NCBI GenBank assembly: GCA_041497995.1
Contig: JBGQHM010000111.1
Coordinates: 1 to 17,016, forward strand
DNA: 17,016 nt
Direction: 5' to 3'
Source: Candidatus Binatia bacterium
GTDB lineage: Bacteria > Desulfobacterota > Binatia > HRBIN30
Of this stretch, positions 2,074 to 17,016 are shown in pieces (within the stretch, counting starts at the first letter, position 1; each line of letters starts with the position of its first letter). The position numbers and the translations under genes are program-made. The notes beneath the pieces were generated by a model. That model made no database searches. It was not told the origin of the DNA and saw nothing but the letters and a program-made list of their open reading frames with translations.

Positions 2074-2153
2074 CCTTGAGAGCCAGGACGCCTACCTTCG
2101 CAGCGTTGGCTCCGGGGGGAGCGGAACCCTACAGATCGATGGAGGGACAGCTG

Positions 2154-2810
2154 ATGGAGGGACATCGCACGAGAGCGCGCGCGTTGGTAACTCTCACCGC
2201 GTGCACGGCGTTGCTTGCTGCCGTTAGTCTTCGCCCGAACCCCACGCTTGCTCAGGGCACCGGGGTAGGGGACTGCCTGAAGGGATGCCGGACCACCGCC
2301 AAGTCGTGCAATGATCCGGTGCGCAGCGACCACAAGACCTGTGCGCAGGGCTGCCGCGACGACATGAAGACGACGCTGCAAGGGTGCAAGACGGCTCAAG
2401 ACCCCGCGGCCTGCATCGGCGGCGCGTTTGACGGAGCCGAGACCTGCCTCGATGGCTGCCGGGCAACGGGGCAGACGGCTCACGCGACCTGCTTCGGCAA
2501 CACCAACGATTGCATCAAGGTGTGCACCCCGGAGTTGGGTGACTGCATCGTCGGCTGCCGGGAAACTGCGCGCACCTGCAAACAGGCAGCATATGATACC
2601 GGGTACACCTGCAAAGACAGCTGCCGGGAAACGCTGAAGACCATGCTGCAAGGCTGTCCGAGCGCCGCCGACCCGAGCGCCTGTGCGCACGCCGCGCGCG
2701 ACGCGGCAAAGATGTGCACGCAGCCGTGCGCGGACGCCGTCCGGTCTGCGATGAATGGTTGCACGGCGGACGCGAAGACGTGCAAGAACGGCTGCCTCTC
2801 AGTGCAGTAA
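2154..2810 (+). CDS. Secreted or lipoprotein-like cysteine-rich tandem-repeat protein of unknown function
   Basis: ATG at 2154 follows GGAGGG (2141-2146) at a 7-nt spacing. An in-frame ATG at 2139 is an alternative start, and the track ORF start at 1920 is an upstream read-through. The N-terminus 'MEGHRTRARALVTLTAC...' has a positive n-region, a hydrophobic core and a possible lipobox L-T-A-C. The mature part carries about 26 Cys in alternating 'CxxGCRxTAxxC' (~22 aa) and 'CxxxCRxxxKTxLQGCxxAxDPxAC' (~35 aa) modules. Confidence 0.6.
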   Translation: MEGHRTRARALVTLTACTALLAAVSLRPNPTLAQGTGVGDCLKGCRTTAKSCNDPVRSDHKTCAQGCRDDMKTTLQGCKTAQDPAACIGGAFDGAETCLDGCRATGQTAHATCFGNTNDCIKVCTPELGDCIVGCRETARTCKQAAYDTGYTCKDSCRETLKTMLQGCPSAADPSACAHAARDAAKMCTQPCADAVRSAMNGCTADAKTCKNGCLSVQ

Positions 2811-2830
2811 CGAGCCCGTACCGCATAAGC

Positions 2831-2870
2831 AAAGGGGGGTGGTACCGCGTGACGGTGCCACCCCCCTTGT
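2831..2870. terminator. Bidirectional rho-independent terminator between convergent genes
   Basis: A 14-bp GC-rich stem (2834-2847 pairing 2853-2866, one G.U pair) closes a 5-nt loop. It is flanked by AAA (2831-2833) and TTGT (2867-2870). It lies between the 2810 stop of the + gene and the 2892 stop of the - gene. Confidence 0.7.
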
Positions 2871-2891
2871 GCGTTCTACGAACCTTCTGAC

Positions 2892-4016
2892 TTAGTTCGA
2901 CAACTTGTACAGCTTCGCCGCATTGCCGGCACACATCTGTTGGCGCTCGGCGGTCGGCACGTCGCGGAACATGTCGTCGACGACGCGACGCGTCTCTGGC
3001 CAATCGCAGCCGTGGTGCGGATAGTCGGTCGACCACATCATGTTCTCGACGCCGATGACGTGGCGGTTCATCACGGCGTAGCGATCGATCATGAACGCGG
3101 CGCGCCAGTTCCGATGAAAGTAGAAGCTCGGCTCGTGCTTGAGCTTCACGGGGAGCCACCAGCGATTGCGCCACCAGCGATCGTCCATCTGCTCGAGGAT
3201 GTAGGGGATCCACCCGCACCCTGTTTCGACGGCGACCCAGATCAAATTGGGAAACCGATCATGCACACCGGAGCTGATGATCTCCGGCAGGTCAGTGATC
3301 ATGCTCGATGCACCGACGGTGGCCAACCCGGTGAGGTCGTCGCCGCGCACGCCCTTGGGCTTCGGCTTCAGGATCTGGCGCATCACCCGCACGTGAAAGT
3401 GCACCGGCACACATGCCGCCTGCACGGCATCCCAGAACGGATCGTCTTCGGGGCGGATCGCCGGGCCGGCGCTGGGCATGGTGTTGAGCCACACCCCGCG
3501 CATGCCCATCTTCAGGCAGCGTTCCATTTCCTTGATGCACGCATCGACGCCGAGCGCCGGCATCGCCGCCAACCCGATGAGCCGGTCCGGCGCTGCTTTC
3601 ACGAACTCCTGCGCCAGCCAGTTGTTGTAGGCCTGCACACCAGCGAGATGGAACTCGGGGTCAGGATCGGAAAAGAAGTGACTCATCATGCGCGCCGAAC
3701 CGAAGAGCACTTCCGCGTCGACGCCGTCGGTGTCCTGTTCTTCGAGACGCGGCGCCGCCTTGAAGTTCCCTTGATTCGCCGCCGCGAAGGTCACGCCGGT
3801 CCAGCGCACCTCTTCATGCTTGCGGCCCGCTGATGCGTAAATCCCGATCGGTGCCGGAGGCGTTTCGGGGGCAAACTGCCACGCTTCGCCACCTTCGCCG
3901 TCGGGCACGACTCGCGGTGCTTTCGCATGGAACTTCTTGGGCATGTACTCGGTCCACAGATGCGGCGGTTCGAGGATGTGCGAGTCCGCCGAGATGAGTC
4001 TGTATTCACGCGCCAT
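2892..4016 (-). CDS. Amidohydrolase-2 family metal-dependent hydrolase/decarboxylase (ACMSD/LigW-like)
   Basis: A 374-aa ORF. The N-terminus 'ISADSHILEPPHLWTEYMP' matches the Amidohydro_2 metal-binding HxH-type start. His/Asp residues typical of the TIM-barrel amidohydrolase fold follow. Confidence 0.7.
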   Translation of the reverse strand: MAREYRLISADSHILEPPHLWTEYMPKKFHAKAPRVVPDGEGGEAWQFAPETPPAPIGIYASAGRKHEEVRWTGVTFAAANQGNFKAAPRLEEQDTDGVDAEVLFGSARMMSHFFSDPDPEFHLAGVQAYNNWLAQEFVKAAPDRLIGLAAMPALGVDACIKEMERCLKMGMRGVWLNTMPSAGPAIRPEDDPFWDAVQAACVPVHFHVRVMRQILKPKPKGVRGDDLTGLATVGASSMITDLPEIISSGVHDRFPNLIWVAVETGCGWIPYILEQMDDRWWRNRWWLPVKLKHEPSFYFHRNWRAAFMIDRYAVMNRHVIGVENMMWSTDYPHHGCDWPETRRVVDDMFRDVPTAERQQMCAGNAAKLYKLSN

Positions 4017-4099
4017 GGGTACGACCTTTCTTTGTTCGGCTCCCGGAGGCAGACGCGCTGCCTCCGGCGACTGAGCGCCAGCGCTGCCGGCGTGAGCGT

Positions 4100-4135
4100 T
4101 CGTTCTTCACTGAACTAACACTTGTTAATATAGCC
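4100..4135. promoter_or_regulatory. AT-rich island with short palindromes in the divergent amidohydrolase/adhE promoter region; candidate operator
   Basis: 'cttcactgaactaacacttgttaatatagcc' is a local GC drop in a region otherwise about 68% GC. It contains the palindromes TTCAcTGAA (4106-4114) and TAACActTGTTA (4116-4127). It lies about 170 nt upstream of the adhE start. Confidence 0.3.
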
Positions 4136-4302
4136 TTCTGGCAGGTGCAAGAGTCTTCGCAGTCGTCGCAGGGCCGGTGCTGATGGTTTTCAGGAAATGC
4201 GAACGCTCTTCCTGCTGCGGGCCGCGGGTGGCCGCTATGCAACTGGCACCACGCTTGCTCAACTCGTTCTTCAACCAGTGCGGTGCGTGAGGAGGGACTC
4301 CG

Positions 4303-6939
4303 ATGCTCCAGACGGCAATCAAGCTGGGTGACCCCCCCCAGGTGGCGAGCGTGCGACGGAAGGAGCTCACGCCGGAGCGCCAGCGATATCTGGACGAGTT
4401 GGTGTCCCGCTCGCGGCACGCGGCGGCGACGTTCTACCAATTCTCGCAGGAGCAGGTGGATCGTTGCGTGCGTGCGATGGTGCTCGCCGGACTGGAGGCG
4501 GCGCAGCAGTTGGCGGCGCTCGCGGTGACGGAGACGAAGCTCGGGGTGCTCGAAGACAAGGTGGTCAAGAACATGGTGGCGACCGAGTTCGTGTACCACT
4601 CGATCAAGGACGAGAAAACGGTCGGGGTCATCCGCGAGTGTCCGGAGCGCAACCTGAAAGAGATCGCCGAGCCGATCGGTGTCATCCTCGGTGTCACGCC
4701 GATCACCAACCCGACGTCGACCGTGCTGTTCAAGTCGTTGATGATGGCGAAGACGCGTAACGCGGTGGTGTTCTGCCCGCATCCGGGCGCGCAGCAGTGC
4801 TCGAACGAGGCGGCACGCGTGATGTACGAGGCCGCGCTCGCGGCGGGGGCACCAGAGGGGTTCATCGGCTGGGTCGATGACATCGCCATCAGCGACACGC
4901 AGTATCTGATGCGTCACCCGGATGTGGCGCTCATCGATGCCACCGGCGGGCCGGGCGTGGTGAAAGCGGCGTACAGCTCCGGCAAACCGGCGCTCGGCGT
5001 CGGCGCCGGCAACGTGCCCTGCTACATCCACCGCAGCGCCGACCTCAACATGGCCGTCGTCGACATCCTCACTTCGAAGACCTTCGACAACGGCACCATT
5101 TGCGCGTCGGAGCAGACGGTACTTGTGGACCGTTCGGTGTACGCGCGCGTCGTCGAGCTCTTCGCGTCGCTCGGTGCGCATGTCTGCAGCGCAGAGGAAG
5201 TCGCGCTGCTCGAGCGCACCGTGGTGGATGCCACCACCGGGACGATGCGCCCGACGGCCGTCGGGCAGAGCGCGCCGGCGATCGCGCACGCCATCGGCAT
5301 GCACGTCGCGCCGGGCACCAAGCTGCTGCTGGCGCCGCTCCAAGGCGTCGGACGCGCCCACCCGCTGTCGTGCGAGAAGCTGTTCCCGGTCCTCGGCATC
5401 CTCCCGGTCGATGGCGAGGACGAAGCCATCAACGCCGCGATGGACGTGCTCTACTTCGGCGGCGTCGGTCACACCGCGTCGATCTTTTGTGAAGACGACG
5501 CGGTCATCGATCGCTATGGTGTGGCGCTGAACGCCGGGCGCATCATCGTCAACTGCCCCTCGTCAGTCGGCGCTCTCGGCGGCGTCTACAACGACCTGCG
5601 GCCGACCTTCTCGTTCGGCTGCGGCACCGGCGGCGGCAACAGCACGATCGAGAACGTCAGCGTGCGCAACTACATGAACGTCAAGCAGCTGGCGAAGCGG
5701 ACGCCGGCGCACCAGTGGCTGCGCGTGCCGAACCAGATCTACTACAACTTGCACGCGCTGGAGAACCTGCGCGCCATCGACGCCGGGAACGTGTTGATCA
5801 TCACTAGCCAGGACTTGGACGACCTCGGCCTGGTTGATCAAGTCCGCTCGTATCTCCCGAACGGCTCGCACGCTCACGTCTTCAACGAGGTAGAGGTCGA
5901 GCCGACGTATCGCGTCATCGCGCGCGGCGTCGAGGCGATCCAGCACCATCATCCCGATCACCTCATCGCCGTAGGTGGTGGCTCGGTCATGGATGCAGCG
6001 AAGGCGATGCGCTTGTTCTACGCGCATCCCGACTTGGACTTTCGCAGCTTGGAGACCACCTTCCTCGATCCACGCAAGCGAGTCATTCAGTACCCGCGCC
6101 AGGCACGCGATCATCTCAGGCTCATTGCCATCCCCACGACCAGCGGCACCGGCTCGGAAGTGACGCCGTTCGCGGTGATCACCGACAGCGAGCGCGGCCG
6201 CAAGGTACCGTTGTATGACAATAGTCTCATTCCCGACGTCGCGATCATCGATCCGCAGCTGGTGCGTGGCCTGCCGGCAAGCGTCACCGCCGATACCGGA
6301 CTCGATGCACTGACGCACGCGTTGGAGGCCGGCGTATCGATATTTGCGTCGGAGTATACGGACGCGCTGGCGCTGCAAGCCGCGCGGGTGGTCTTCGAGT
6401 TTTTGCCGCGGGCGGTGCACGACGGCAGCGACATGGAGGCGCGCGCCAAGATGCACAACGCCGCCTGCATGGCAGGGATGGCGTTCGCCAACGCCTTCGT
6501 CGGCGTCAACCATGCGCTGGCGCACAGCCTCGGATCGGCGTTCAAGATTCCGCACGGACGTGCCAACGCCGTGCTGTTGCCGTACGTTGTGCGCTACAAC
6601 GCCGCGGTGCCGAGTAAGTTCATGCCCTTCCCCAACGTCAAAGCCTACGTCGCGCACCGCAAGTATGCACAGTTTGCCGAGGCCATGAGTTGGGGCGGCT
6701 CGAGCCCTGAGGAGAAGGTCGAGATCCTGATCGCCAAGATCTTCGCGCTGCTGGAGACGTGCAATCTGCCGACCTCGATCAAGGAGTTGGGCATCGCCGC
6801 GGAAGACTTCGAGCGCGCGATACCCGATATCATCCGCGCCGCTTTCGACGACATCAGCATCCGGTCGAATCCGCGTATGCCGTTGATCAAGGAGCTCGAG
6901 GACATTCTGCGGACCGCATATGCGGGCCGCCGCAGCTGA
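4303..6939 (+). CDS. adhE: Bifunctional acetaldehyde-CoA/alcohol dehydrogenase AdhE (N-terminal ALDH domain plus C-terminal Fe-ADH domain)
   Basis: An 878-aa ORF. GAGGAGGG sits 6 nt upstream of the ATG. It is collinear with E. coli AdhE: 'FSQEQVD', the catalytic-Cys motif '[11 protein letters not shown]', Fe-ADH '[11 protein letters not shown]' and His-rich metal motifs 'HALAHSLG'. Confidence 0.9.
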
Positions 6940-6954
6940 GGCGGGAGGCGTGAC

Positions 6955-7260
6955 ATGAATCATCTGAACGGAGAGAACCCGCGACTGCGGCTCGATCCGG
7001 ATGGGAGCGAAACGTTCCTCAAACACCTCAGGGCTGAGCTGCAGAAGCCGTCGGTGTGCGCGGTCACCGTCGATCTAGGACGCGTCGGGCGCGTCGACCC
7101 GTTGATTCTGCAGACGCTACGCACTGCCGGCGAGGAAGCGGACGTCACTCGCAAGGATCTCTACGTCGACGGCGCCGGACCCGTCGTGTACAAGTCCTTG
7201 CAGCTCGCCAAGCTCGGCTCATTCTTCAAGCGGCTGCATCACGCGACCGCGCCATGCTGA
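6955..7260 (+). CDS. Small STAS-domain-like protein (putative anti-sigma-factor-antagonist fold), translationally coupled to adhE
   Basis: The ATG at 6955 is preceded by GGGAGG (6941-6946). 'VTVDLGRVGRVDPLILQTL' and 'DLYVDGAGPVVYKSLQLAKLGSFF' loosely resemble the SpoIIAA/STAS core. This is a weak recall-based assignment. Confidence 0.35.
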   Translation: MNHLNGENPRLRLDPDGSETFLKHLRAELQKPSVCAVTVDLGRVGRVDPLILQTLRTAGEEADVTRKDLYVDGAGPVVYKSLQLAKLGSFFKRLHHATAPC

Positions 7261-7354
7261 CGAAGTTTGGTCTGCTCTCCTGACGCGCCATCAGGGTACG
7301 CTGGCGCACGCCGCCGCCGATCTGCTACAGCCACGGCCACACGCGAGGTGCGCC

Positions 7355-8131
7355 ATGGTGACAAGCGATCTGGACGTCGGCTCTCAGTACCTGCACGCCA
7401 CAAAGGGCGGCGGTGTGTTGCGTGTCGTCATCGACCGACCCAAGCGCCGCAACGCGCTGACCATCGAGATGTACCACGGCCTGAAGAAGGCCACGGTGCT
7501 CGCCGAGCGCGACCCCGATGTGGATGTGCTCGTCGTCACGAGCACCGGCGAGTACTTTTGCGTCGGCGGCGAGATGGGCGGGCAACATGAAGGTGGGCAG
7601 GCGCTCGACCGCGAGACCGATCGCTTCGACCTGCTGCCGTTCGTCGAGCTCGAGCGCTGCCCGAAGATCGTCGTGATGGCGATCAACGGCATGTGTCAGG
7701 GCGGCGGGCTCAACATGACTTTGATGAGCGACATCTCCGTGGTTTCCGACCGCGCGACCTTCCGCGCGCCCGAGTTGCTGCGCGGCGTCGCCGACTGCTT
7801 TCTCGGTGCGCGGCTGGCCAGCCGTATCGGCATCGCGCGCGCCAAGTATCTGCTGTTCACGGCGCAGTACATCAGCGCGCAAGAGGCGCTGGCCATAGGC
7901 CTCATCTCACGCGTCGTCCCGCACGATCAACTCGAGACCGCGCTTGCTGAAACCATCGGCTGGATCCGCCAGACCGGCCCGCACGCGCGCACCGCGCTAA
8001 AGCGTGACATGAACCGCCAGCTACCGGTGATCGACTACCCGATGTTCGCCGAGTCGCTCGCGTCTGAAGAAGTACGCGAAGGCTTCACCGCCTTCGTCGA
8101 GAAGCGCCCACCGCGCTGGGCGAGCAAGTAG
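7355..8131 (+). CDS. Enoyl-CoA hydratase/isomerase (crotonase superfamily)
   Basis: A 258-aa ORF. 'RVVIDRPKRRNALT', 'YFCVGGEMGG' and 'GMCQGGGLNMTLMSD' are the crotonase oxyanion-hole signatures. ATG at 7355, TAG at 8129-8131. Confidence 0.8.
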   Translation: MVTSDLDVGSQYLHATKGGGVLRVVIDRPKRRNALTIEMYHGLKKATVLAERDPDVDVLVVTSTGEYFCVGGEMGGQHEGGQALDRETDRFDLLPFVELERCPKIVVMAINGMCQGGGLNMTLMSDISVVSDRATFRAPELLRGVADCFLGARLASRIGIARAKYLLFTAQYISAQEALAIGLISRVVPHDQLETALAETIGWIRQTGPHARTALKRDMNRQLPVIDYPMFAESLASEEVREGFTAFVEKRPPRWASK

Positions 8132-8609
8132 CGCCGCAGAAGCGCCGGTAGGTCCCCCTCCTTACCAAGGAGGGGGCTAGGGGGGAGGTTGCTCTGCGCG
8201 CCCGCAACACGTCCTCGATCCGCGCCAGCACACCCGCAAGATTCTCGAAGACATCCACGTTCGCAAACCGAAGCACCTCAATCCCGAAGCTCTTCAAGTA
8301 CGCCGTTCGCCGCTGGTCGTACGCGACGGCGTCCGCGGTGAAATGCGAATCGCCGTCGATCTCGATCGCCAACTTCGATTGTACTGCGTAGAAGTCGAGG
8401 ACGTAAGCGTTGACGCCGTACTGTCTGTGGAACTTGGTGCCGCGTTGTGCGCCTTTGAGTTGCTGCAACAGCCGGCGCTCGGCTTCCGGCGCGTTGTTGC
8501 GCAGTGTTTGGCGTTTGGTGCGTTCGGTGTGTTTGTTGAAGTGGAGTGTCAGAGCAACCTCCCCCTGCCCCCTCCTTGGTAAGGAGGGGGACCTGTGCCG
8601 CGCCCACAC
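8085..8609 (-). CDS. DUF559 domain protein (Vsr-like endonuclease fold; E. coli YcjD-like) with uncertain true ends, since the ORF reads through both flanking inverted repeats
   Basis: The core 'NKHTERTKR...LRNNAPEAERRLLQQLKG...GTKFHRQYGVNAYVLDFYAVQSKLAIEIDGDSHF...QRRTAYLKSFGIEVLRFANVDVFENLAGVLARIEDVL' matches the short (~120 aa) DUF559 family. The only available start is GTG at 8609, just outside the right repeat. No internal Met exists. The C-terminal ~40 aa are translated from the left repeat and overlap the crotonase 3' end by 47 nt. Confidence 0.6.
   Translation of the reverse strand: MWARHRSPSLPRRGQGEVALTLHFNKHTERTKRQTLRNNAPEAERRLLQQLKGAQRGTKFHRQYGVNAYVLDFYAVQSKLAIEIDGDSHFTADAVAYDQRRTAYLKSFGIEVLRFANVDVFENLAGVLARIEDVLRARRATSPLAPSLVRRGTYRRFCGATCSPSAVGASRRRR
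8151..8196. repeat. Left terminal inverted repeat containing a perfect hairpin (CCCCCTCCTT-acc-AAGGAGGGGG, 8154-8176) plus 'ctaggggggaggttgctctg'
   Basis: Seen directly. Its reverse complement recurs at 8550-8593 with only two small indels. Confidence 0.8.
8550..8593. repeat. Right terminal inverted repeat: 'cagagcaacctccccctg' plus hairpin CCCCCTCCTT-ggt-AAGGAGGGGG (8568-8590)
   Basis: Reverse complement of the left repeat. Differences are 'c-tagggggg-a' versus 'c-aggggg-a'. Confidence 0.8.
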
Positions 8610-8633
8610 CGGCGCGGCGTCGAGCGTTGCCGG

Positions 8634-9260
8634 TTACTTTCTCACGAAACCGCCGACGCCACGCACGATGAAGCTGTCGCACGTCGCGTCATTCAAGCGC
8701 GTCGCGATGTCGGTGGAGGAATTGGTCCCCAGACAGTTGCCCGCTCCAGCTGACTCGAGCAGCGCGACGCCGAGGACGGCGAACGGACTGCCTGAGGGAA
8801 ACGTGAGGCTGGCGAACACCGGGCCGAGATCCACTTTCACCTTGCCCTTGCCGCCCTTCAGCACGACCTTGACGTAGACATTCGTGACGTCGTCGCAGAT
8901 CGGTGGTGCTGCGGTGTCGACCGGGCAAGTGCTGACGGCGATTTTGAGGATGGGGTTGTTGGAATCGCTTTCTGTGGGCCCCGTCGTCATGAGGGCGCCG
9001 GCTCCGTCGGTCACTCCCTGGATCGTGCCAGTCACCTTGAGCGTGTCCGGAATCGTCACCTTCGATTTCGGAGACATCTTCGCCAGCGCGCATTCCGAAT
9101 TGTCAAACCCGCAGCTGAGACCCACGTTCAAGCAGAAGCCGGGACCGACGAAACAATCGGGCGGAGCGGGGATGATGTTCAGCTGGACCTTTGTCCCGGC
9201 CGCGGCCTGCGTGGCAACCAAGGAAAGCATCAACGCGAGCAAAGAGAATCGTCTGCTCAT
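8634..9260 (-). CDS. Secreted hypothetical protein (Sec signal peptide, 8 Cys)
   Basis: ATG at 9260 on the minus strand, with GGGGAGG about 9 nt upstream. The N-terminus 'MSRRFSLLALMLSLVATQAAAG' is a classic signal peptide. The track ORF start at 9332 is an upstream read-through. The body is G/T/S-rich with paired Cys. Confidence 0.6.
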   Translation of the reverse strand: MSRRFSLLALMLSLVATQAAAGTKVQLNIIPAPPDCFVGPGFCLNVGLSCGFDNSECALAKMSPKSKVTIPDTLKVTGTIQGVTDGAGALMTTGPTESDSNNPILKIAVSTCPVDTAAPPICDDVTNVYVKVVLKGGKGKVKVDLGPVFASLTFPSGSPFAVLGVALLESAGAGNCLGTNSSTDIATRLNDATCDSFIVRGVGGFVRK

Positions 9261-9339
9261 GATCACTACCTCCCCTTCTTGTTTTTTGCGATGGTGCTCC
9301 CAGGCAGGCAAAGTTGTCAAGCGTACCTGCACATCGGTC

Positions 9340-9368
9340 TTGACTTAACGAACGTTTGTTCGTAGCTA
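9340..9368 (+). promoter_or_regulatory. Sigma-70-like promoter (TTGACT-N17-TAGCTA) overlapped by a palindromic TetR-type operator ACGAAC-gttt-GTTCGT (9348-9363)
   Basis: Seen in sequence in the 128-bp divergent intergenic region between the secreted-protein gene and the TetR gene. Confidence 0.5.
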
Positions 9369-9388
9369 CAGCCGGGGTCTCCAATCCA

Positions 9389-10069
9389 GTGGTCACGAGC
9401 GTACGCAAGGCCAAACGCGCGGCAACGCCGACGCCGGCGCTACCGACGCGCGAGGTGATTCTCGACACTGCCGAGCGGCTGTTCGCCATGCATGGGGTGG
9501 ACAGCGTGGCGCTGCGCGATCTGGCGCGCGAGATGAACCTGACGGCACCGAGTTTGTACAACCACTTCCCCAGCAAGCAGGCACTGTACGACGCGGTACT
9601 GGACCGCGGCTTGCGGCCGATCCTCGAAGCGATTGCCGCGGCGTGGCATCCCGGCGCACTGCGCGCCGAACAGATGCGCGCCACGGTCGATACGCTGACG
9701 ACTCACCTCGCCACCCACCCGCATCTCGCCCGCCTGCTGCAGCGCGCGATGCTCGACCAGAGCGAGAGCGTGCAGAAACTCATGAGTCGCTGGCTCACGC
9801 CGCTGTACGTCGAGGGCATCGCTGTGATTCGCGAGACCGCCGGCGACGCCGGCTGGGAGGCAGACGAGGTGCCGCATCTCACCCTCGGATTGTTTGGGAT
9901 GGTCTTCGCGTATTTTACCAACGCCGCTGCGCTGCAATCGTTTGTTGCCGGCAGCGGCGATCCCATGTCACCGCAAGCGCTGGCGATCCAGCGCCGCGTC
10001 ATCGAAAAGGCGATCTACCGCTTGCTCGGGCCGCTGCCGCGCGGCGCCGAACGCAGAAAGAAGGCATGA
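9389..10069 (+). CDS. TetR/AcrR family transcriptional regulator
   Basis: HTH segment 'EVILDTAERLFAMHGVDSVALRDLAREMNLTAPSLYNHFPSKQALY'. The start is uncertain: GTG at 9389 is preferred, because the TTG at 9356 listed by the track lies inside the operator and promoter. Stop is TGA at 10067-10069. Confidence 0.75.
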   Translation: MVTSVRKAKRAATPTPALPTREVILDTAERLFAMHGVDSVALRDLAREMNLTAPSLYNHFPSKQALYDAVLDRGLRPILEAIAAAWHPGALRAEQMRATVDTLTTHLATHPHLARLLQRAMLDQSESVQKLMSRWLTPLYVEGIAVIRETAGDAGWEADEVPHLTLGLFGMVFAYFTNAAALQSFVAGSGDPMSPQALAIQRRVIEKAIYRLLGPLPRGAERRKKA

Positions 10070-10073
10070 GAGC

Positions 10074-11195
10074 ATGGCTGCAGCTGAACAGGGAAAGATC
10101 ACCGACGAAGGCATCGCTAAGCTGCGCGAACGCGTCGGCAAAGGCTTCGAAGGCCGGCGCCCGTGGCGCACTGAAGTCACGCGCGACGCCATTTATCACC
10201 TCGCGTTGGCGATCGGCGACCTCAACCCGCTGTACCTCGACGAGGAGTACGCCAAGAAGACGCGCTGGGGGACGCTGCTGGCGCCGCCGATCATCGTGCA
10301 GACGATGGACACGCTGCGCGCCGTCGGCCACAGCGGTCTGCCCGAAGGCCTGCCGGGCGTGCACTCCATCTGGACCGGCTCGCTCTATGAGTGGGTACGT
10401 CCGCCGCAGCTCGGTGACCGCATTCGCGCCGACTCCTACATGAAGGAGATCCGCGAGAAGGACAGCACCTTCGGCGGCGGCCGCGCGCTCTATCAAACCT
10501 ACGAGGCCAAGTACTACGACCAGAACGGTACCTACATGGGCGTCCGCAACGACACCTGGATTCGCATCGAGCGCGCCAAGACGGCGGAGAAAAAGAAATA
10601 CGGCGACATCAAGTTGGCCGAATGGAAGCCGGAAGACATCACGGGCTTCATGGAAGAGTACCGCACCGAACGACGTACGACCGCACGCTATTGGAACGAC
10701 GTGAAAGTGGGCGAGTCGATGAACCGCATCATCAAGGGCCCGCTGACACCGACCGCCGAGATCGCCTTCGAGTCATACTTCGGCATCTATTTGGTCGGCA
10801 ACAAAGTCGCCGCAAACCTGTACGCCAAGCACCCGGCGCTGATGATTCCCAACGAGCAAGGCATCCCCGAGCCACCGCAACGTGTGCATTGGGACAACGC
10901 CTTCACGCAACGTTTGCTCGGCTTGCCAGGTGCGTATGATCTCGGTCCTGAGCGGTGCTCGTGGCTCATCCAGGGGATGACCGACTGGATCGGCGACAAC
11001 GGCCGGCTGACCAAGCTCGAAGCCAAGTACCTGAAGTTCAACTACATGGGTGACGTCACCTGGGTGCAGGGCAAGGTGACCGACAAGTTCGAACAGGATG
11101 GTAAAGGCTTCGTACGCTGCGCGCTCGAATGCGTCAACCATCGCGACGAAGTTACGGCGGCGGCAACCGCCGAGGCGGAGTTGCCACACCGCTGA
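10074..11195 (+). CDS. Double hot-dog MaoC-family (R)-specific enoyl-CoA hydratase/dehydratase (MaoC_dehydrat_N plus MaoC_dehydratase)
   Basis: ATG at 10074 lies 4 nt after the TetR stop, giving a 373-aa product. The track start at 9894 is an in-frame read-through of the TetR 3' end. Two hot-dog halves are visible, one of them at 'HRDEVTAAATAEAELPHR'. Confidence 0.7.
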   Translation: MAAAEQGKITDEGIAKLRERVGKGFEGRRPWRTEVTRDAIYHLALAIGDLNPLYLDEEYAKKTRWGTLLAPPIIVQTMDTLRAVGHSGLPEGLPGVHSIWTGSLYEWVRPPQLGDRIRADSYMKEIREKDSTFGGGRALYQTYEAKYYDQNGTYMGVRNDTWIRIERAKTAEKKKYGDIKLAEWKPEDITGFMEEYRTERRTTARYWNDVKVGESMNRIIKGPLTPTAEIAFESYFGIYLVGNKVAANLYAKHPALMIPNEQGIPEPPQRVHWDNAFTQRLLGLPGAYDLGPERCSWLIQGMTDWIGDNGRLTKLEAKYLKFNYMGDVTWVQGKVTDKFEQDGKGFVRCALECVNHRDEVTAAATAEAELPHR

Positions 11196-11211
11196 TCCGA
11201 CGGAGAGCATC

Positions 11212-12447
11212 ATGAAACTGGCAGACGTCGATCTGTGCAACCTCGACCAGTTCGAGACGGGTGTCCCGCACCATGTCTTCAAACTGCTGCGTGCCGAATC
11301 GCCGGTGCACCGCCATGCGGAGCCCAATGGCGGCCCCGGGTTCTGGGTGGTCACGAAATATCACGACCTGATGAACGTTTCGAAGAACCCGGGCACGTTC
11401 TCGTCCTACAAGGGCGGCACCAATATCTTCGACGTCGAGCCGGAGCAGCTCAGCCAAACGCGGATGATCATGCTCAACATGGATCCACCGGCGCATAGCA
11501 AGTATCGCAAGCTGGTGAGCCAAGGCTTCGTACCGCGCATCGTCTCGCGGCTGGAAGAGCACGTCCGCGAGATGACGCGGCACATCGTCGACAGCATCGC
11601 CGCACGCGGCGAGTGCGACTTCGTCACCGAGGTCGCCGCCGAGCTGCCGCTGCAGGTGATCGCCGAGTTTCTCGGCGTCCCGCTCGCGGATCGCCACAAG
11701 GTCTTCGAATGGAGCAACCGCCTCATCGGCTTCGACGATCCGGAATTCAACGGCAACGCCAAGGAAGAGGGGATGCGCGCCGCCACCGAGATGTACATGT
11801 ATGCGAACCAGCTCGCCCTCGAGCGGCGCGATCATCCGCGCGACGACCTGGTCAGCGTGTTGATGCGTGGCGAGGTTGATGGCGAGCGCTTGTCGGAGAT
11901 GGAGTTCGATTCGTTCTTTCTGCTGCTCGCGGTGGCGGGGAACGAGACGACGCGCAACCTGATTTCCGGGGGCATGCTGGCGCTCATCGAACACCCCGAG
12001 CAGCGCGCGCGGCTGGTCGCCGACATGTCGCTGCTGCCCACCGCGGTCGAAGAGATGCTGCGCTGGGTGTCGCCGGTGATGCACTTCCGCCGCACCGCAA
12101 CTCGTGACACGGAGCTTCGTGGCCAGAAAATCGGCGAGGGCGAAAAGGTGGTGATCTTCTATCCGTCGGTGAACCGCGACGAGGAGATCTTTCCCGACGG
12201 TGATCAGTTCAACGTCAGCCGCAGCCCGAACGAGCATCTCGCCTTCGGTATCGGCGAACACTTCTGTATCGGGTCAAACCTTGCACGGCTTGAGATCCGA
12301 CTGATGTTCCAGGAATTGCTGACCCGCCTGCCGGACATTGAGCTGGCAGGGCCGGTACACCGCCTGCGGTCGAACTTCATCAACGGCATCAAGCGCATGC
12401 CCGTACGCTTCACCCCTGAACGCGCACACCACGCGGCACACGCGTGA
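11212..12447 (+). CDS. Cytochrome P450, CYP125/CYP142-like (steroid/alkyl side-chain terminal hydroxylase family)
   Basis: ATG at 11212 with GGAGAG 5 nt upstream. Heme-thiolate motif 'FGIGEHFCIGSNLARLE', the EXXR motif 'EEMLRW' and 'AGNETTRN' in the I-helix. The N-terminus 'MKLADVDLCNLDQFETGVPHHVF' resembles mycobacterial CYP142/CYP125. Confidence 0.85.
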   Translation: MKLADVDLCNLDQFETGVPHHVFKLLRAESPVHRHAEPNGGPGFWVVTKYHDLMNVSKNPGTFSSYKGGTNIFDVEPEQLSQTRMIMLNMDPPAHSKYRKLVSQGFVPRIVSRLEEHVREMTRHIVDSIAARGECDFVTEVAAELPLQVIAEFLGVPLADRHKVFEWSNRLIGFDDPEFNGNAKEEGMRAATEMYMYANQLALERRDHPRDDLVSVLMRGEVDGERLSEMEFDSFFLLLAVAGNETTRNLISGGMLALIEHPEQRARLVADMSLLPTAVEEMLRWVSPVMHFRRTATRDTELRGQKIGEGEKVVIFYPSVNRDEEIFPDGDQFNVSRSPNEHLAFGIGEHFCIGSNLARLEIRLMFQELLTRLPDIELAGPVHRLRSNFINGIKRMPVRFTPERAHHAAHA

Positions 12448-12458
12448 AGTGCGGCGAC

Positions 12459-13688
12459 ATGAACCTCGACGACATCGACCTGTTGAACGCCGACAACTTC
12501 GTTGCGGGCGTCCCGCACGAAGCCTTCCGTACGCTGCGCCAGCAGGCGCCGGTGTTCTGGCACAAGGAAGCCGACGGCCCTGGATTCTGGGCGGTGACGA
12601 AGTATCAGGACGTCGCCACGGTATCGCGCGACCCGCGCACCTACTCCTCGGCCAAGAAAGGGGTGTTCGTCTTCGATCCGGTGCCCGAAGATCTCCAGCG
12701 TATGCAGCTGATGATGCTCAACATGGACCCGCCGAAGCACACCAAGCTGCGGGCTCTAGTGAACAAGGGCTTCACGCCGCGTATGGTCGCGCAGCTCGAA
12801 TCGCGTCTGCGCGCCAGAACCAACGAGATCATCGACGATGTCGCCGCGAGGGGACAGTGCGACTTTGTGAGCGACATCGCCGCCGAGCTGCCGCTGCAAG
12901 CCATTGCCGAGCTGCTGGGCATCCCGCTCTCCGACCGGCATTTGGTGTTCAACTGGACCAACCGCCTGATCGGTTTCGACGACCCGGATCAGGGGTCGTG
13001 GGAGGAAGGCAAGCTCGCCGCTGCGGAGATGTACATGTACGCCAACCAGCTCGCCGCCGAGCGCCGCGACCATCCGGGTGACGACCTCGTCAGCGTGCTG
13101 ATGAACGCCGAGGTCGAAGGCGAACGGCTGACGGAGCTGGAGTTCGATCTGTTCTTCGTCCTGCTCGCCGTGGCCGGCAACGAGACGACGCGCAACCTGA
13201 TCTCCGGCGGCATGCTGGCGTTGATCGAGCATCCGGAGGAGCGCGCGCGGCTCGCGGCCAATCCCGCGTTGATGCCCACCGCCGTCGAGGAGATGCTGCG
13301 CTGGGTGTCGGCGGTCATCGAGTTCCGCCGCACCGCGACCCGCGATACCGAGCTACGCGGGCAGAAGGTCCGGGCGGGTGACAAGGTCATCATCTACTAC
13401 ATTTCGGCCAACCGCGACGAAGACGTGTTCCCCGACGCCGACCGCTTCGATGTCGGTCGTACGCCCAACGATCATCTGGCATTCGGTATCGGCGAGCATT
13501 TCTGCCTCGGATCCAATCTGGCGCGGCTGGAGATTCGCATCATGTTCGAGGAGCTGCTGCGTCGCTTGCCGGATATCGAGTTGGCCGGTGCCGTCGACCG
13601 CTTGCGTTCCAGCCTGATCAACGGCATCAAGCGTATGCCGGTGGTGTTTACTCCTGAGCGCCAGCGCCACGCCGTTGGCGGAGGATGA
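12459..13688 (+). CDS. Cytochrome P450, tandem paralog of the preceding gene (CYP125/CYP142-like)
   Basis: ATG at 12459 gives 'MNLDDIDLLNADNF', which aligns residue-for-residue with the upstream P450 N-terminus. The GTG at 12444 listed by the track overlaps the previous stop. Motifs 'FGIGEHFCLGSNLARLE', 'EEMLRW' and 'AGNETTRN'. Identical nucleotide stretches are shared, for example 11941-11966 and 13177-13202. Confidence 0.85.
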   Translation: MNLDDIDLLNADNFVAGVPHEAFRTLRQQAPVFWHKEADGPGFWAVTKYQDVATVSRDPRTYSSAKKGVFVFDPVPEDLQRMQLMMLNMDPPKHTKLRALVNKGFTPRMVAQLESRLRARTNEIIDDVAARGQCDFVSDIAAELPLQAIAELLGIPLSDRHLVFNWTNRLIGFDDPDQGSWEEGKLAAAEMYMYANQLAAERRDHPGDDLVSVLMNAEVEGERLTELEFDLFFVLLAVAGNETTRNLISGGMLALIEHPEERARLAANPALMPTAVEEMLRWVSAVIEFRRTATRDTELRGQKVRAGDKVIIYYISANRDEDVFPDADRFDVGRTPNDHLAFGIGEHFCLGSNLARLEIRIMFEELLRRLPDIELAGAVDRLRSSLINGIKRMPVVFTPERQRHAVGGG

Positions 13689-13695
13689 GGCTGCG

Positions 13696-13890
13696 ATGAA
13701 GATTCGCATCGACTACGACTTGTGTGAAGGCAACGCCGTGTGCATGAAGGTCTGCCCCGAAGTCTTCGAGGTAGGTGACGACGATCGCGCGCGGTTACGA
13801 GTTAAGGACCCGGACGAGAACCTGCGCGCGAAAGTCGAGGCAGCAGTGCGCCGCTGTCCGCGGCAAGCGCTGGCCATCGAAGCCGCCTGA
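13696..13890 (+). CDS. Small single-cluster ferredoxin (3Fe-4S/4Fe-4S FdxD-type, P450 redox-partner class)
   Basis: ATG at 13696 with GGAGGA about 9 nt upstream. 'MKIRIDYDLCEGNAVCMKVCPEVFEVGDDD...RRCPRQA' is 64 aa with four Cys in the pattern C-x5-C-x3-CP...CP. It sits 7 nt after the second P450. Confidence 0.8.
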   Translation: MKIRIDYDLCEGNAVCMKVCPEVFEVGDDDRARLRVKDPDENLRAKVEAAVRRCPRQALAIEAA

Positions 13891-13915
13891 GGCGCGCCGC
13901 CCCGCGTTGGGGACG

Positions 13916-13943
13916 TTGACTCCCATCTGATTCACGCTAGCTT
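13916..13943 (+). promoter_or_regulatory. Putative sigma-70-like promoter for the encapsulin operon (TTGACT 13916-13921, N16, TAGCTT 13938-13943)
   Basis: Seen in the 86-bp gap between fdx1 and the EncFtn gene. It has the same TTGACT...TAGCT architecture as the TetR-operon promoter at 9340. Confidence 0.4.
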
Positions 13944-13976
13944 GCGGGTTGTCGACGACTGCGAAGGGAGACCGGC

Positions 13977-14339
13977 ATGGCAAGCGACGCGTATCACGAA
14001 CCGCTGGACCTGATCTCGGAGCGTACCCGCAACCTGCACCGCGCCATCGTCAGCCTGATGGAGGAGCTGGAAGCCATCGACTGGTATCAGCAGCGTGCCG
14101 AAGCCTGCTCGGATCCGCAGCTCAAAGCCGTTCTGCTGCACAACAAGAACGAAGAGATCGAGCACGCCATGATGGTGCTCGAATGGATCCGGCGGAACGA
14201 CGAGCACTTCAATGACCCCATGAAGACGTACCTGTTCACCGAAGCGCCGATCACCGGCATCGAGAAGGCCGCCGAGGGCGAGGCTTCCGCCGCGGCGCCG
14301 AACGCGACGCTCGGTATCGGTGCCTTGAAAGGGAGGTGA
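13977..14339 (+). CDS. Encapsulated ferritin-like protein (EncFtn/Flp cargo) with C-terminal encapsulin targeting peptide
   Basis: ATG at 13977 with GGGAG 6 nt upstream. 'HEPLDLISERTRNLHRAIVSLMEELEAIDWYQQR...NKNEEIEHAMMVLEWIRRN...TYLFTEAPITG' is collinear with EncFtn, including the ExxH ferroxidase motif. A flexible linker precedes the C-terminal 'ATLGIGALKGR', which matches the family-1 cargo-loading peptide (GxGxLKG). Confidence 0.85.
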   Translation: MASDAYHEPLDLISERTRNLHRAIVSLMEELEAIDWYQQRAEACSDPQLKAVLLHNKNEEIEHAMMVLEWIRRNDEHFNDPMKTYLFTEAPITGIEKAAEGEASAAAPNATLGIGALKGR

Positions 14340-14342
14340 GCC

Positions 14343-15152
14343 GTGGACCTGCTGAAGCGGAAGCTGGCGCCGATCACGCCTGAGGCGTGGAAACAGATTG
14401 ACGAAGAGGCGAAGCGTGTCCTGCAGCTCACCCTCGCGGGCCGCAAGCTCGTCGACGTCGACGGGCCACACGGCTGGCAACACGCTGCGGTGAACACCGG
14501 CCATTTGAGCATAAAGTCGGATGCCGTTCTCGGCGTCCCGTGGGGGATTCGGGAGGTCGTGCCGTTGATTGAGCTGCGGGTACCCTTCGAGCTGTCGATT
14601 ATGGAGCTCGACAACGCGGCGCGCGGCGCGACGTTGGACTTGGAGCCTGTCGTCGCTGCGGCGGAGCGCGTCGCCCGCGCCGAGGATCTCACCATCTTCA
14701 CCGGTTTCAAGCCGGCAGGCATCGACGGCATCATCGCCCAGAGCCCGCACCCTGCGATCACCATCCCCGACGACTTCGCGAACTACCCACAGGTCGTCGT
14801 CGAGGCGGTGGAAACGTTGCGGCGCGCCGGCATCAACGGGCCCTACGCGATCGCCCTCGGACCGGACTGCTACGCCGGGCTCTCGCAGGCAGCGGAAGAC
14901 GGCTACCCGATCCGCGACCGGGTCCAGCGCTTCCTCGACGGACCGCTGGTGTGGGCACCGCAGGTTGACGGTGCCGTCGTGCTGTCCGTACGCGGCGGTG
15001 ATTTCACGCTCACGATCGGCCAGGACCTGTCGATCGGCTACGCCTCGCACAGCCACGAGAAGGTGGAGCTGTATCTGACGGAGTCGTTCGCCTTCCGTGT
15101 GCACGAGCACGGCGCCGCGGTGCACCTCAAGCCGAAACGCGGCAAGAAGTGA
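14343..15152 (+). CDS. Family-1 encapsulin nanocompartment shell protein (HK97 fold, linocin M18-like)
   Basis: GTG at 14343, 3 nt after the EncFtn stop, with GGGAGG 6 nt upstream. A 269-aa ORF. 'MDLLKRKLAPITPEAWKQIDEEAKRVL...LAGRKLVDVDGPHGW...VVPLIELRVPF...GPYAIALGPDCY...DGYPIRDRVQRFLDGPLVWAP...GGDFTLTIGQDLSIGYASH' is collinear with T. maritima/M. xanthus-type encapsulins. Confidence 0.9.
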   Translation: MDLLKRKLAPITPEAWKQIDEEAKRVLQLTLAGRKLVDVDGPHGWQHAAVNTGHLSIKSDAVLGVPWGIREVVPLIELRVPFELSIMELDNAARGATLDLEPVVAAAERVARAEDLTIFTGFKPAGIDGIIAQSPHPAITIPDDFANYPQVVVEAVETLRRAGINGPYAIALGPDCYAGLSQAAEDGYPIRDRVQRFLDGPLVWAPQVDGAVVLSVRGGDFTLTIGQDLSIGYASHSHEKVELYLTESFAFRVHEHGAAVHLKPKRGKK

Positions 15153-15195
15153 ATTGTGTTGCTGGTGCCGCGACGCGTGTGCAAGGATCGGAGAG

Positions 15196-15390
15196 ATGAA
15201 GGTTCGGGTTGACGACGATCTCTGCGAGGGAAACGCCTTGTGTATGAAAGTGTGTCCGGAAGTGTTCGAGGTCAGAGACGACGACCGGGCGCATCTGCTC
15301 ATCCTGTCCCCCGGTGAGGAACTGCGAGCGAAAGTCGAGGAGGCTGTGCGGAGGTGCCCGCGGCAGGCAATCTCGATTGTGAATGAGTGA
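15196..15390 (+). CDS. Second small ferredoxin, paralog of the gene at 13696 (FdxD-type)
   Basis: ATG at 15196, 44 nt after the shell gene, with AAGGA upstream. 'MKVRVDDDLCEGNALCMKVCPEVFEVRDDD...RRCPRQAISIVNE' has the same Cys pattern. The track start at 15097 is an upstream read-through. Confidence 0.8.
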   Translation: MKVRVDDDLCEGNALCMKVCPEVFEVRDDDRAHLLILSPGEELRAKVEEAVRRCPRQAISIVNE

Positions 15391-17016
15391 CGTCTCGTGG
15401 TTCGCGCGACCCTCTCGCCTAGTGGTGTCGCTGCTGTCGCTGTTGTTCCTTGTGCTGTCGGCACGGGGCACTGCCAACGCGATCGTCTGTACCGACACCG
15501 CTGCAGTAGTGGCCGCCGTCTTCGGCGATCCGGCCGGCGCGTGCGATCTGAACGGTGACGGCATCGTCAGCGCCGCCGACGTCACAGCCGCGCTCCTCGG
15601 CGCTACGTCGGTGACAGCGACGCCAAGCGCGACTGTCACACCAACTCCCACTTCAAGTTCCGACGCGTCGCCAACCGCAACCAGTACCGCAACGCTCACA
15701 CCGACCGCGACCAGAACTCACACACCGGCCCTGTGTCCGACCAGCGGAGCGGATCTCCTCGTGGAGATCGACAACCAGACCGGCACCTCCCCGCTGTCCG
15801 CCGTGCTGAGCGGCCAGCGTATCGATGTGGGCTGCCGGACCACATCGCTCGCTACGTCGTACACCTTCAGCCTCGAGTGCAGCGGCAGTGGGCTCGTCAC
15901 GTGCGGCACAGCCGGCGGCTTGGCGCCCGGTGAATGGCGCCACTCGCTGCACGTGCTCACGCCGCACACCGGACAGTTGCAACATCAGACCTCGATGCTC
16001 GTCGCAGAAGACGTGCCGAACCCGGTGCGCTTCACCGCATTCACTAGCGTGCTCTCGGTGCAGACGACGGCCAACACGGGCAACGGCTCTCTACGCAATC
16101 TGCTGCAGAATGCCGAGAGCGACGCGAAACCCCTGCTCATCCAGTTCGACCCGTCGGTGTTTCCGGACGGCGTCGCAACGACGATTCAGCTGCAGTTCCA
16201 ACTCCCGACGCTTGCCGCGAGCGACGTGACGATCGACGGCACGGACGCCACGGGCACAGCCGGCAATCGCGTCATCGATGCCGGCGGTCTCGCGATCCCC
16301 GCGTTGGCCATTTCAGGCGCGCGCAACCATCTCGTCGGGCTGCGCTTGCAGAACGCCGGCGGCAGCAACCGCGACGTGCTGAACATTTCCGGTGGCACCG
16401 CCGATGCAAACGTGGTGGAGCACGTCATCGTCGAGGGTGCCGCCACCGGCGACGGTATCGGTGTGGACACCAATGCCGGCAAGGACTTCGACGGCAGCGA
16501 GAACATCATCCGCGATTGTGAGGTGTCGGGCGCCTCGGACAAGGGCATCAAAGTGACCACCGGCGCACACGTGCACGTGGAGCGCTGTTGGGTGCACGAC
16601 AACGTCAACGGCGGGATTCAGTCGACGCTCGGCGGCCACGTCCAGGCCTGGCACAACCTCGTCGAGCGCAACCGCGGCGGCACAGCACAGAATGGCCTCT
16701 CGGTGAATGCACAAGACGACAACACCTCGAACGGCGCGTATTCCGAGATGGGCTCGTGGGGGAACATCGCACGCAGCAACGGGGCCAACGGTTTTTCGGT
16801 GCGTGCCTTTGCGTTCGCACACTCTCGCGACGACTACCTCGCGACCAACGGCTCGTCAGGGATCCGTATCTTCAACGACATCGGCCCCGCCGCCACCGCG
16901 CTGGTGGAGGGCACGAGCGCCGTGTGCAACTCCGTCGACGGTGCCGTCGTCGCCAATACCTCGATGGCCGACTTCGGCGGCGGACCGTTCGCCAGCACCG
17001 GCAACAACGCCTTCAA
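15383..17016 (+). CDS. Secreted multi-domain protein: signal peptide, single dockerin/EF-hand-like Ca-binding motif, Thr/Pro-rich linker and right-handed parallel beta-helix (PbH1/pectin-lyase fold) repeats; 3'-truncated by the window end
   Basis: It is absent from the ORF track because it has no in-window stop. My own translation of this frame from ATG 15383 is open to nt 17016. That ATG overlaps the fdx2 stop by 8 nt (AATGAGTGA). The signal peptide is 'MSDVSWFARPSRLVVSLLSLLFLVLSARGTANA'. 'CDLNGDGIVSAADVTAAL' is a DxNxDGxxxxxD loop. Next comes 'TATPSATVTPTPTSSSDASPTATSTATLTPTATRT'. The beta-helix rungs follow, for example 'NISGGTADANVVEHVIVEG', 'SENIIRDCEVSG' and 'AHVHVERCWVHDN'. Confidence 0.6.
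   Translation, partial: MSDVSWFARPSRLVVSLLSLLFLVLSARGTANAIVCTDTAAVVAAVFGDPAGACDLNGDGIVSAADVTAALLGATSVTATPSATVTPTPTSSSDASPTATSTATLTPTATRTHTPALCPTSGADLLVEIDNQTGTSPLSAVLSGQRIDVGCRTTSLATSYTFSLECSGSGLVTCGTAGGLAPGEWRHSLHVLTPHTGQLQHQTSMLVAEDVPNPVRFTAFTSVLSVQTTANTGNGSLRNLLQNAESDAKPLLIQFDPSVFPDGVATTIQLQFQLPTLAASDVTIDGTDATGTAGNRVIDAGGLAIPALAISGARNHLVGLRLQNAGGSNRDVLNISGGTADANVVEHVIVEGAATGDGIGVDTNAGKDFDGSENIIRDCEVSGASDKGIKVTTGAHVHVERCWVHDNVNGGIQSTLGGHVQAWHNLVERNRGGTAQNGLSVNAQDDNTSNGAYSEMGSWGNIARSNGANGFSVRAFAFAHSRDDYLATNGSSGIRIFNDIGPAATALVEGTSAVCNSVDGAVVANTSMADFGGGPFASTGNNAF

Follow-up and report, generated by a model that had tools for sequence, protein, structure and literature searches.

The question raised by this locus is whether the short C-terminal tail of a ferritin-like protein is the signal that directs it into the encapsulin shell encoded next to it. 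The window, i.e., the whole stretch of DNA analysed, comprises 17,016 nt from a Candidatus Binatia bacterium (assembly GCA_041497995.1, contig JBGQHM010000111.1, forward strand, positions 1-17,016). The protein in question is 120 aa long and is encoded on the plus strand at 13977-14339, including a TGA stop codon at 14337-14339; its translation ends in ...TGIEKAAEGEASAAAPNATLGIGALKGR. The original prediction had named it an encapsulated ferritin-like protein (EncFtn), an identity borne out by database searches, in which it matches the Pfam EncFtn-like family (PF22277; E=1e-40) and, among solved structures in the PDB, lies nearest to the EncFtn of H. ochraceum (7OE2/5N5F; E=1e-42). The catalytic residues agree with this identity. 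The ferroxidase centre of R. rubrum EncFtn (Rru_A0973, PDB 5DA5) consists of Glu32, Tyr39, Glu62 and His65 and includes the motif HxxxEExEH; with an offset of -2, the same residues are found in the window protein as E30, Y37, E60 and H63, the motif spans residues 55-63, and all four residues are invariant among the homologues (alignment A2).

The gene that follows, at 14343-15152 on the plus strand, starts with GTG and encodes a 269-aa family-1 encapsulin shell protein, which matches the Linocin_M18 family (PF04454; E=2.7e-89) and the T=1 shell of H. ochraceum (7ODW; E=1.7e-88, 56% identical). The two genes are co-oriented and the GTG lies 3 nt past the EncFtn stop codon, which is the adjacency looked for between a cargo gene and its shell gene. 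The H. ochraceum EncFtn:encapsulin system (7OE2/7ODW/5N5F; Ross et al., 2022, PMC8791618) has the same two-gene arrangement, and its EncFtn domain is identical to that of the window at 62/96 positions, whereas its EncFtn is longer (131 aa) and the window tether is the shorter of the two. EncFtn and shell happen to share a reading frame, separated by TGA-GCC across the 14337-14345 junction, which brings to mind read-through of the TGA into an archaeal-style EncFtn-shell fusion. The 3-nt gap is typical of the clade of the window, whereas other clades have gaps of -1, +1, +2 or +5 nt; the frame is not conserved and nothing supports a fusion.

Additionally, the two-gene module appears to bring its own 5' region with it. 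Some 65 nt immediately upstream of EncFtn (13912-13976, plus strand) are conserved in L081, L084, L088 and L092, also where the upstream gene is a different one. This stretch contains the hexamer TTGACT (13916-13921), a 16-nt spacer, the hexamer TAGCTT (13938-13943) and a Shine-Dalgarno sequence, AAGGGAG (13964-13970). Because the conservation persists where the upstream gene differs, it suggests that the module has its own promoter and 5' UTR here, with 13916-13943 as the promoter-like part. A scan for consensus promoters between 13600 and 15500 called none, and a terminator scan of the same interval returned a single hairpin, inside a cytochrome P450 gene and at chance level.

At the end of EncFtn, the codons of 14307-14336 (ACG CTC GGT ATC GGT GCC TTG AAA GGG AGG) specify T111 through R120. 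It was here that a cargo-loading tag, quoted as 'ATLGIGALKGR', had been placed; the interval does encode TLGIGALKGR, but the leading Ala of that quotation falls just outside it, at 14304-14306. The core of the tail, T111-L-G-I-G-A-L-K118 (14307-14330, plus strand), comprises three hydrophobic anchors (L112, I114 and L117), a hinge glycine (G115) and a basic residue (K118). It ends two residues short of the C-terminus and fits the pattern L(F)-x-V(I)-x-x-L(I), which defines membership among such peptides. The targeting peptides of R. rubrum and H. ochraceum read SLGIGSLK(R) (PMC11202242, Table 2). That of H. ochraceum, GSLGIGSLR with the core GxLGIxxL, was seen by cryo-EM in the P-domain cleft of its shell (PMC8791618), and TLGIGALK occupies the aligned position in the window, differing in that Thr and Ala replace the first and second Ser, respectively, Lys replaces Arg and Ala replaces the Gly that leads the core. 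Likewise, the T1 consensus DGSLGIGSLKG puts a reporter protein into a T1 shell (PMC7925596; Altenburg et al., 2021). When TLGIGALKG is set against the consensus SLGIGSLKG, seven of nine positions are identical and the two substitutions are conservative, the tails of R. rubrum and T1 both ending in ...LGIGSLKG.

Such a match is hardly expected by accident. A screen of every six-frame ORF of 50 aa or longer in the window (25,632 residues) finds L[GTSN][IV]G[SAGT][LM][KR] a single time, compared with about 0.015 occurrences expected from composition; for a hit among the final 12 residues of any one specified protein, the expectation is about 3e-6. The match is therefore not due to chance. Together with the likeness to characterised peptides, this makes it very probable that T111-LGIGALK-118, the octapeptide at the C-terminal end of EncFtn, serves as a targeting peptide for a family-1 encapsulin, from which we infer that EncFtn is indeed packaged in the shell. 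The label 'GxGxLKG-type' given to the tail by the original prediction is right as to the class of peptide, a family-1 targeting peptide, but not as to what determines binding, which is the pattern L-x-I-G-x-L-K.

Targeting peptides of this kind follow a disordered extension, and here, too, the window protein resembles its relatives. The segment ahead of the motif, KAAEGEASAAAPNA (residues ~97-110; 14265-14306, plus strand), is hypervariable in homologues. In an AlphaFold2 model built on an alignment of 46 sequences, the helical domain has pLDDT values of 88-98 at residues 11-80, and the values fall below 50 at residues 104-120. Residues 92-99, including TGIEKAA (93-99), are predicted to be helical, and the crystallised H. 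ochraceum construct aligns up to residue 96 of the window protein. On these model-based grounds, the ordered domain reaches about residue 96-100 and is followed by a flexible tether of about 10-15 residues. The flexible linker proposed ahead of the tag is thus variable and predicted to be disordered, as claimed, but the true linker is shorter than proposed, since TGIE aligns within the crystallised construct. Tethers of 10-40 aa have been described (PMC11202242), a range in which the window tether lies at the short end. R. rubrum EncFtn, which is 140 aa long, has a disordered tail of about 40 aa, and among homologues, the linkers differ in length over about 40 residues, the distance from the domain end to the motif ranging from 20 to 59 residues in 80 loci. 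The tail of the window protein is therefore a disordered and weakly conserved C-terminal extension of the expected kind (~10-40 aa).

The motif at the end of this variable stretch is conserved in orthologous cargo, as the original prediction would have it. Since an exhaustive search of cluster representatives gave mostly truncated metagenomic fragments, which are unfit for the comparison of C-termini, two samples were used: the 120 closest cluster representatives (69-99% identical) and one locus from each of 80 other species (52-80% identity). Among the close representatives, the Leu at motif position 0 is kept in 120/120 and G, I, G and K are each kept in 116-119, and the protein ends two residues past the motif Lys in all but seven; by comparison, the ~14 residues ahead of the motif vary freely. 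In the 80 loci, the column entropy amounts to 0-0.86 bits at seven motif positions, as opposed to 2.4-3.1 bits just upstream. The motif is found in 77 of the 80 species as an LGIGSL-type tail, counting the variants LGLGSL, LTIGGL and RGIGSL, and in each of these 77 loci a shell gene adjoins, starting between -17 and +8 nt from the EncFtn stop codon. The remaining three have neither tail nor shell gene. This co-occurrence is significant by Fisher's exact test (p=1.2e-5 across the 80 species), a value that overstates independence because the homologues are phylogenetically related and the three exceptions may represent a single clade or event.

The three exceptions serve as natural negative controls. 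They encode 101-aa proteins of the s-FLP type (L055, 2094-2396; L071, 6001-6303; L077, 755-1057) that come from proteobacterial MAGs, resemble one another and end in ...YLFTDKP[IV].[DE]LEH.H..., and within the fetched flanks of all three no targeting peptide and no shell gene were found. A member of this type is NE0167 of Nitrosomonas europaea (PDB 3K6C), whose ferritin-like domain is homologous to that of the window EncFtn (E=4.8e-32). The s-FLPs end about 10 residues past YLFT, lack the LGIGSL tail and have no adjoining shell gene in the three genomes examined, whereas in the window protein 24 residues separate YLF from the motif Leu and the targeting peptide follows, which is why the protein should not be classed as an s-FLP.

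How well the window peptide would work can be judged from the peroxidase cargo of K. pneumoniae, a DyP whose peptide, SGSLNIGSLK, was mutated systematically (PMC10960027; PDB 8U51). Although one cargo is a peroxidase and the other a ferritin-like protein, the two peptides share the same register, the three hydrophobic anchors, the Gly hinge and the Lys, and they differ at +1, where the window has Gly and KpDyP has Asn. In the alanine scan of KpDyP, mutation of L340, I342, G343, L345 or K346 abolished loading; G338A reduced it substantially; Ser-to-Ala and Asn-to-Ala mutants reduced it to varying degrees, the double Ser mutant abolishing it altogether; and K347A had little effect (PMC10960027). 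All five essential residues are present in the window peptide, as L112, I114, G115, L117 and K118, and the alignment to characterised peptides called for by the original prediction thus comes out in its favour. T111 stands at the first Ser position of the consensus, and two secondary deviations remain, A110 (corresponding to KpDyP G338) and A116 (corresponding to S344), both of them Ala at loading-sensitive positions. In its residues, then, the window tail is a canonical family-1 peptide with two mild natural deviations.

These deviations give rise to an alternative, namely that the tag is weakened to the point where EncFtn is poorly loaded or is a largely free ferroxidase, like the s-FLPs. 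The reduced loading of the KpDyP G338A and Ser-to-Ala mutants speaks for it, as does the existence of the tail-less and shell-less homologues described above. Nevertheless, T111 keeps a hydroxyl group at the first Ser position, which sets the window peptide apart from the double Ser mutant, and both deviant positions vary in nature: position -2 has an entropy of 2.5-3.1 bits, position +4 is Ala in 17/120 and Gly in 13/120 of the close relatives, and among close relatives with the same 9-residue tail, positions 110 and 116 both differ. Moreover, the shell gene has been retained in tight coupling and every essential residue is intact. A poorly loaded or largely free EncFtn is therefore very unlikely, but because A110 and A116 sit where Ala substitutions lowered loading in Klebsiella, the affinity of the window peptide could be below that of the consensus peptide.

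In agreement with the reading of the tail as a working targeting peptide, the residues that receive such peptides are present in the shell. In KpEnc, Arg34, Asp229 and Ile230 have an important part in binding the peptide, whose Lys pairs with Asp38 (PMC10960027). The window shell aligns R34, D38, D228 and L229 with these four residues, the first three being identical and the replacement of I230 by L229 being conservative. Across 78 shells, R34 is kept in 78, D38 in 75, D228 in 77 and L229 in 65. The H. ochraceum and window shells additionally share R34, D38 and the GQDLSIGY segment. Shell columns that co-vary with the choice of Leu or Met at the third peptide anchor were also sought; the top ones follow the division between clades and include no known pocket residue, and this signal was set aside as phylogenetic.

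A second alternative concerns the genes on either side of the module. Ferredoxin 1 (13696-13890) and its paralogue ferredoxin 2 (15196-15390), both on the plus strand and both 64 aa long, could also be packaged by a non-canonical signal, which would make this a multi-cargo compartment. Since Fer4_15 extends over residues 3-61 of the 64 in both proteins, neither has a spare tail at either end, and no LGIG-type or [TS][VI]G[ST]L (TVGSL-type) motif occurs elsewhere in the window, in any frame, besides that of EncFtn; the claim that neither flanking ferredoxin is tagged thus withstands the screen for cryptic tags. One candidate was ...QALAIEAA, with which ferredoxin 1 ends, read as a cryptic tag of the form 'LxI'. 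It was rejected: it sits inside the Fer4_15 match or at its border, is part of the CPxxAI element of the ferredoxin fold, and has no Gly hinge, no third hydrophobic residue and no Lys.

The precedent for packaged ferredoxins comes from Firmicute IMEF operons, in which Bfd-like 2Fe-2S ferredoxins with an N-terminal TVGSL co-purify with the shell (Giessen and Silver; PMC8346489). The resemblance to the window lies in the position of a ferredoxin gene directly downstream of the shell gene, and the order ferredoxin-EncFtn-shell-ferredoxin is kept in four sequence variants of the lineage. However, the window ferredoxins are of the single-cluster Fer4_15 type, lack TVGSL, have no Bfd or 2Fe-2S Pfam match and lie in a P450 cluster, so they do not resemble such N-terminally tagged cargo. 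An ordinary reason to have a pair of ferredoxins lies directly upstream, in two tandem P450 genes; the 8-nt overlap of ferredoxin 2 with the start of the following gene ties it to that neighbour and not to the shell; and in none of the 80 other species does a ferredoxin or a P450 gene adjoin the EncFtn-shell pair. Packaging of either ferredoxin is accordingly extremely unlikely, and EncFtn is left as the tagged cargo.

The genes around the module, from TetR through a FAS1-type (de)hydratase, two P450s, ferredoxin, EncFtn, shell and ferredoxin to a beta-helix protein (9356-17016), occur in the same order on other contigs with an identical EncFtn, one of them from GCA_041478385.1. Three diverged variants of the lineage show the order as well, two of them with an EncFtn 88% and 79% identical to that of the window and one on a contig reached via a member of the ferredoxin 1 cluster. 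The loci with this synteny are L081-L089 and L092; one of the variants carries an extra Uma2 gene, which in L088 and L089 lies between ferredoxin and EncFtn. Another EncFtn relative at 79% identity lies in an unrelated gene neighbourhood. The ferredoxins match each other at 75% by tblastn, with ~77% of aligned columns identical, and the similarity is confined to the coding region; a scar of recent duplication or insertion around the module was considered and rejected, since their flanks are unrelated and the two are old paralogues. The association with ferredoxins is lineage-specific and, most simply, marks where the two-gene module landed. A functional coupling of the module to the P450 cluster is improbable, a speculation we entertain only tentatively: an untagged ferredoxin outside the shell might donate electrons that re-mobilise the stored iron, or the compartment might serve the haem and Fe-S enzymes of the cluster as a buffer of iron or peroxide. 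If true, this would give a Fer4_15 ferredoxin a Bfd-like role and would bear on the 'unidentified electron carrier partner' in iron release from encapsulins.

Several features of the surrounding DNA deserve mention in their own right. The tandem P450 genes span 11212-13688, and their counterparts in related loci are called at 409-415 aa each; in the ORF listing, the second gene opens with a GTG at 12444 and shares 4 nt with the stop of the first, whereas on related contigs it is called from about 12 nt past the first. Overlapping the end of ferredoxin 2, a long gene starts with ATG at 15383 and runs off the end of the window (15383-17016), its product being 734 aa long on the contigs L081-L083, which carry an identical EncFtn. 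This product has only a weak Beta_helix Pfam match and a hydrophobic N-terminus that resembles a signal peptide (MSDVSWFARPSRLVVSLLSLLFLVLS...); a ferredoxin translationally coupled to an exported beta-helix protein is an odd pairing. Further upstream, 4303-6939 encodes an 878-aa fusion of aldehyde dehydrogenase and iron-type alcohol dehydrogenase (AdhE-like), which precedes an enoyl-CoA hydratase gene (7355-8131), and the window also contains genes for an amidohydrolase (2892-4016, minus strand) and a rhamnosidase-like glycosidase (52-2073). Collectively, these four genes suggest a catabolic neighbourhood.

The last two residues of EncFtn call for a separate explanation. In the tail PITGIEKAAEGEASAAAPNATLGIGALKGR, the terminal Gly and Arg codons, G119-R120 (GGG AGG, 14331-14336, plus strand), make up a perfect Shine-Dalgarno sequence, which lies 6 nt ahead of the GTG of the shell gene. 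Among homologues, the Gly at +7 is encoded by GGA or GGG in 49/52 loci, as opposed to 23/145 for the two Gly residues inside the core (p=8e-25), and the Arg at +8 is encoded by AGR in 16/18, as opposed to 3/17 for Arg at the Lys/Arg position. Elsewhere in the motif, Gly and Arg codons lack this GGR/AGR bias, which therefore indicates that 14331-14336 has a dual role, coding for the end of the peptide and acting as the ribosome binding site of the shell gene. In line with this, the cryo-EM densities of related peptides end at the Lys/Arg (PMC8791618; PMC10960027), and Lys347 of KpDyP is dispensable for loading (PMC10960027). The functional peptide is thus probably T111-K118, with the terminal Gly-Arg of 'LKGR' kept largely by the ribosome binding site of the shell gene. 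The core follows a different rule: its residues are invariant and their codons vary (Gly, GGC/GGT/GGG/GGA; Leu, CTG/TTG/CTC; Ser, AGC/AGT/TCG/TCT; Lys, AAA/AAG), which shows that selection acts on the peptide. That the whole tail might owe its conservation to constraint at the nucleotide level, be it the ribosome binding site of the shell gene or translational coupling, rather than to peptide function, is scarcely credible, since the bias that favours this explanation is confined to +7 and +8, the L-G-I-G-S-L-K core varies freely at synonymous sites and is kept at intergenic distances from -17 to +8 nt, and the same peptide has been seen on shells by cryo-EM (PMC8791618; PMC10960027).

With the tail read as a peptide signal, a plausible sequence of events can be drawn up. 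EncFtn would fold as a ferritin-like domain of two helices and would form, as its characterised homologues do, decamers with ferroxidase activity. The shell would be translated off the same mRNA, 3 nt past the EncFtn stop codon, so that cargo and shell would be made together. A disordered tether of ~10-15 residues would present the peptide, in which G115 would act as the hinge and K118 would pair with the acidic patch of the shell (D38). EncFtn would thereby be trapped within a probable T=1 shell, which would store oxidised iron. The binding of the peptide to the shell, the decameric state of EncFtn and the T number are points that we infer.

As far as sequence goes, EncFtn and shell are an uncharacterised but typical EncFtn/family-1 encapsulin pair, whose peptide, its position, tether, receptor and operon match those of known ones. 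Beyond annotation the result matters little, with two points of use. TLGIGALK is a natural variant with Ala at two secondary positions and could inform the engineering of tags, and consensus tags derived from alignments call for the caveat that their last two residues may reflect a downstream ribosome binding site and not shell binding. For the organism itself, the gene pair can confidently be labelled a family-1 encapsulin loaded with EncFtn, a nanocompartment for iron storage and oxidative stress in an uncultured soil or sediment lineage.
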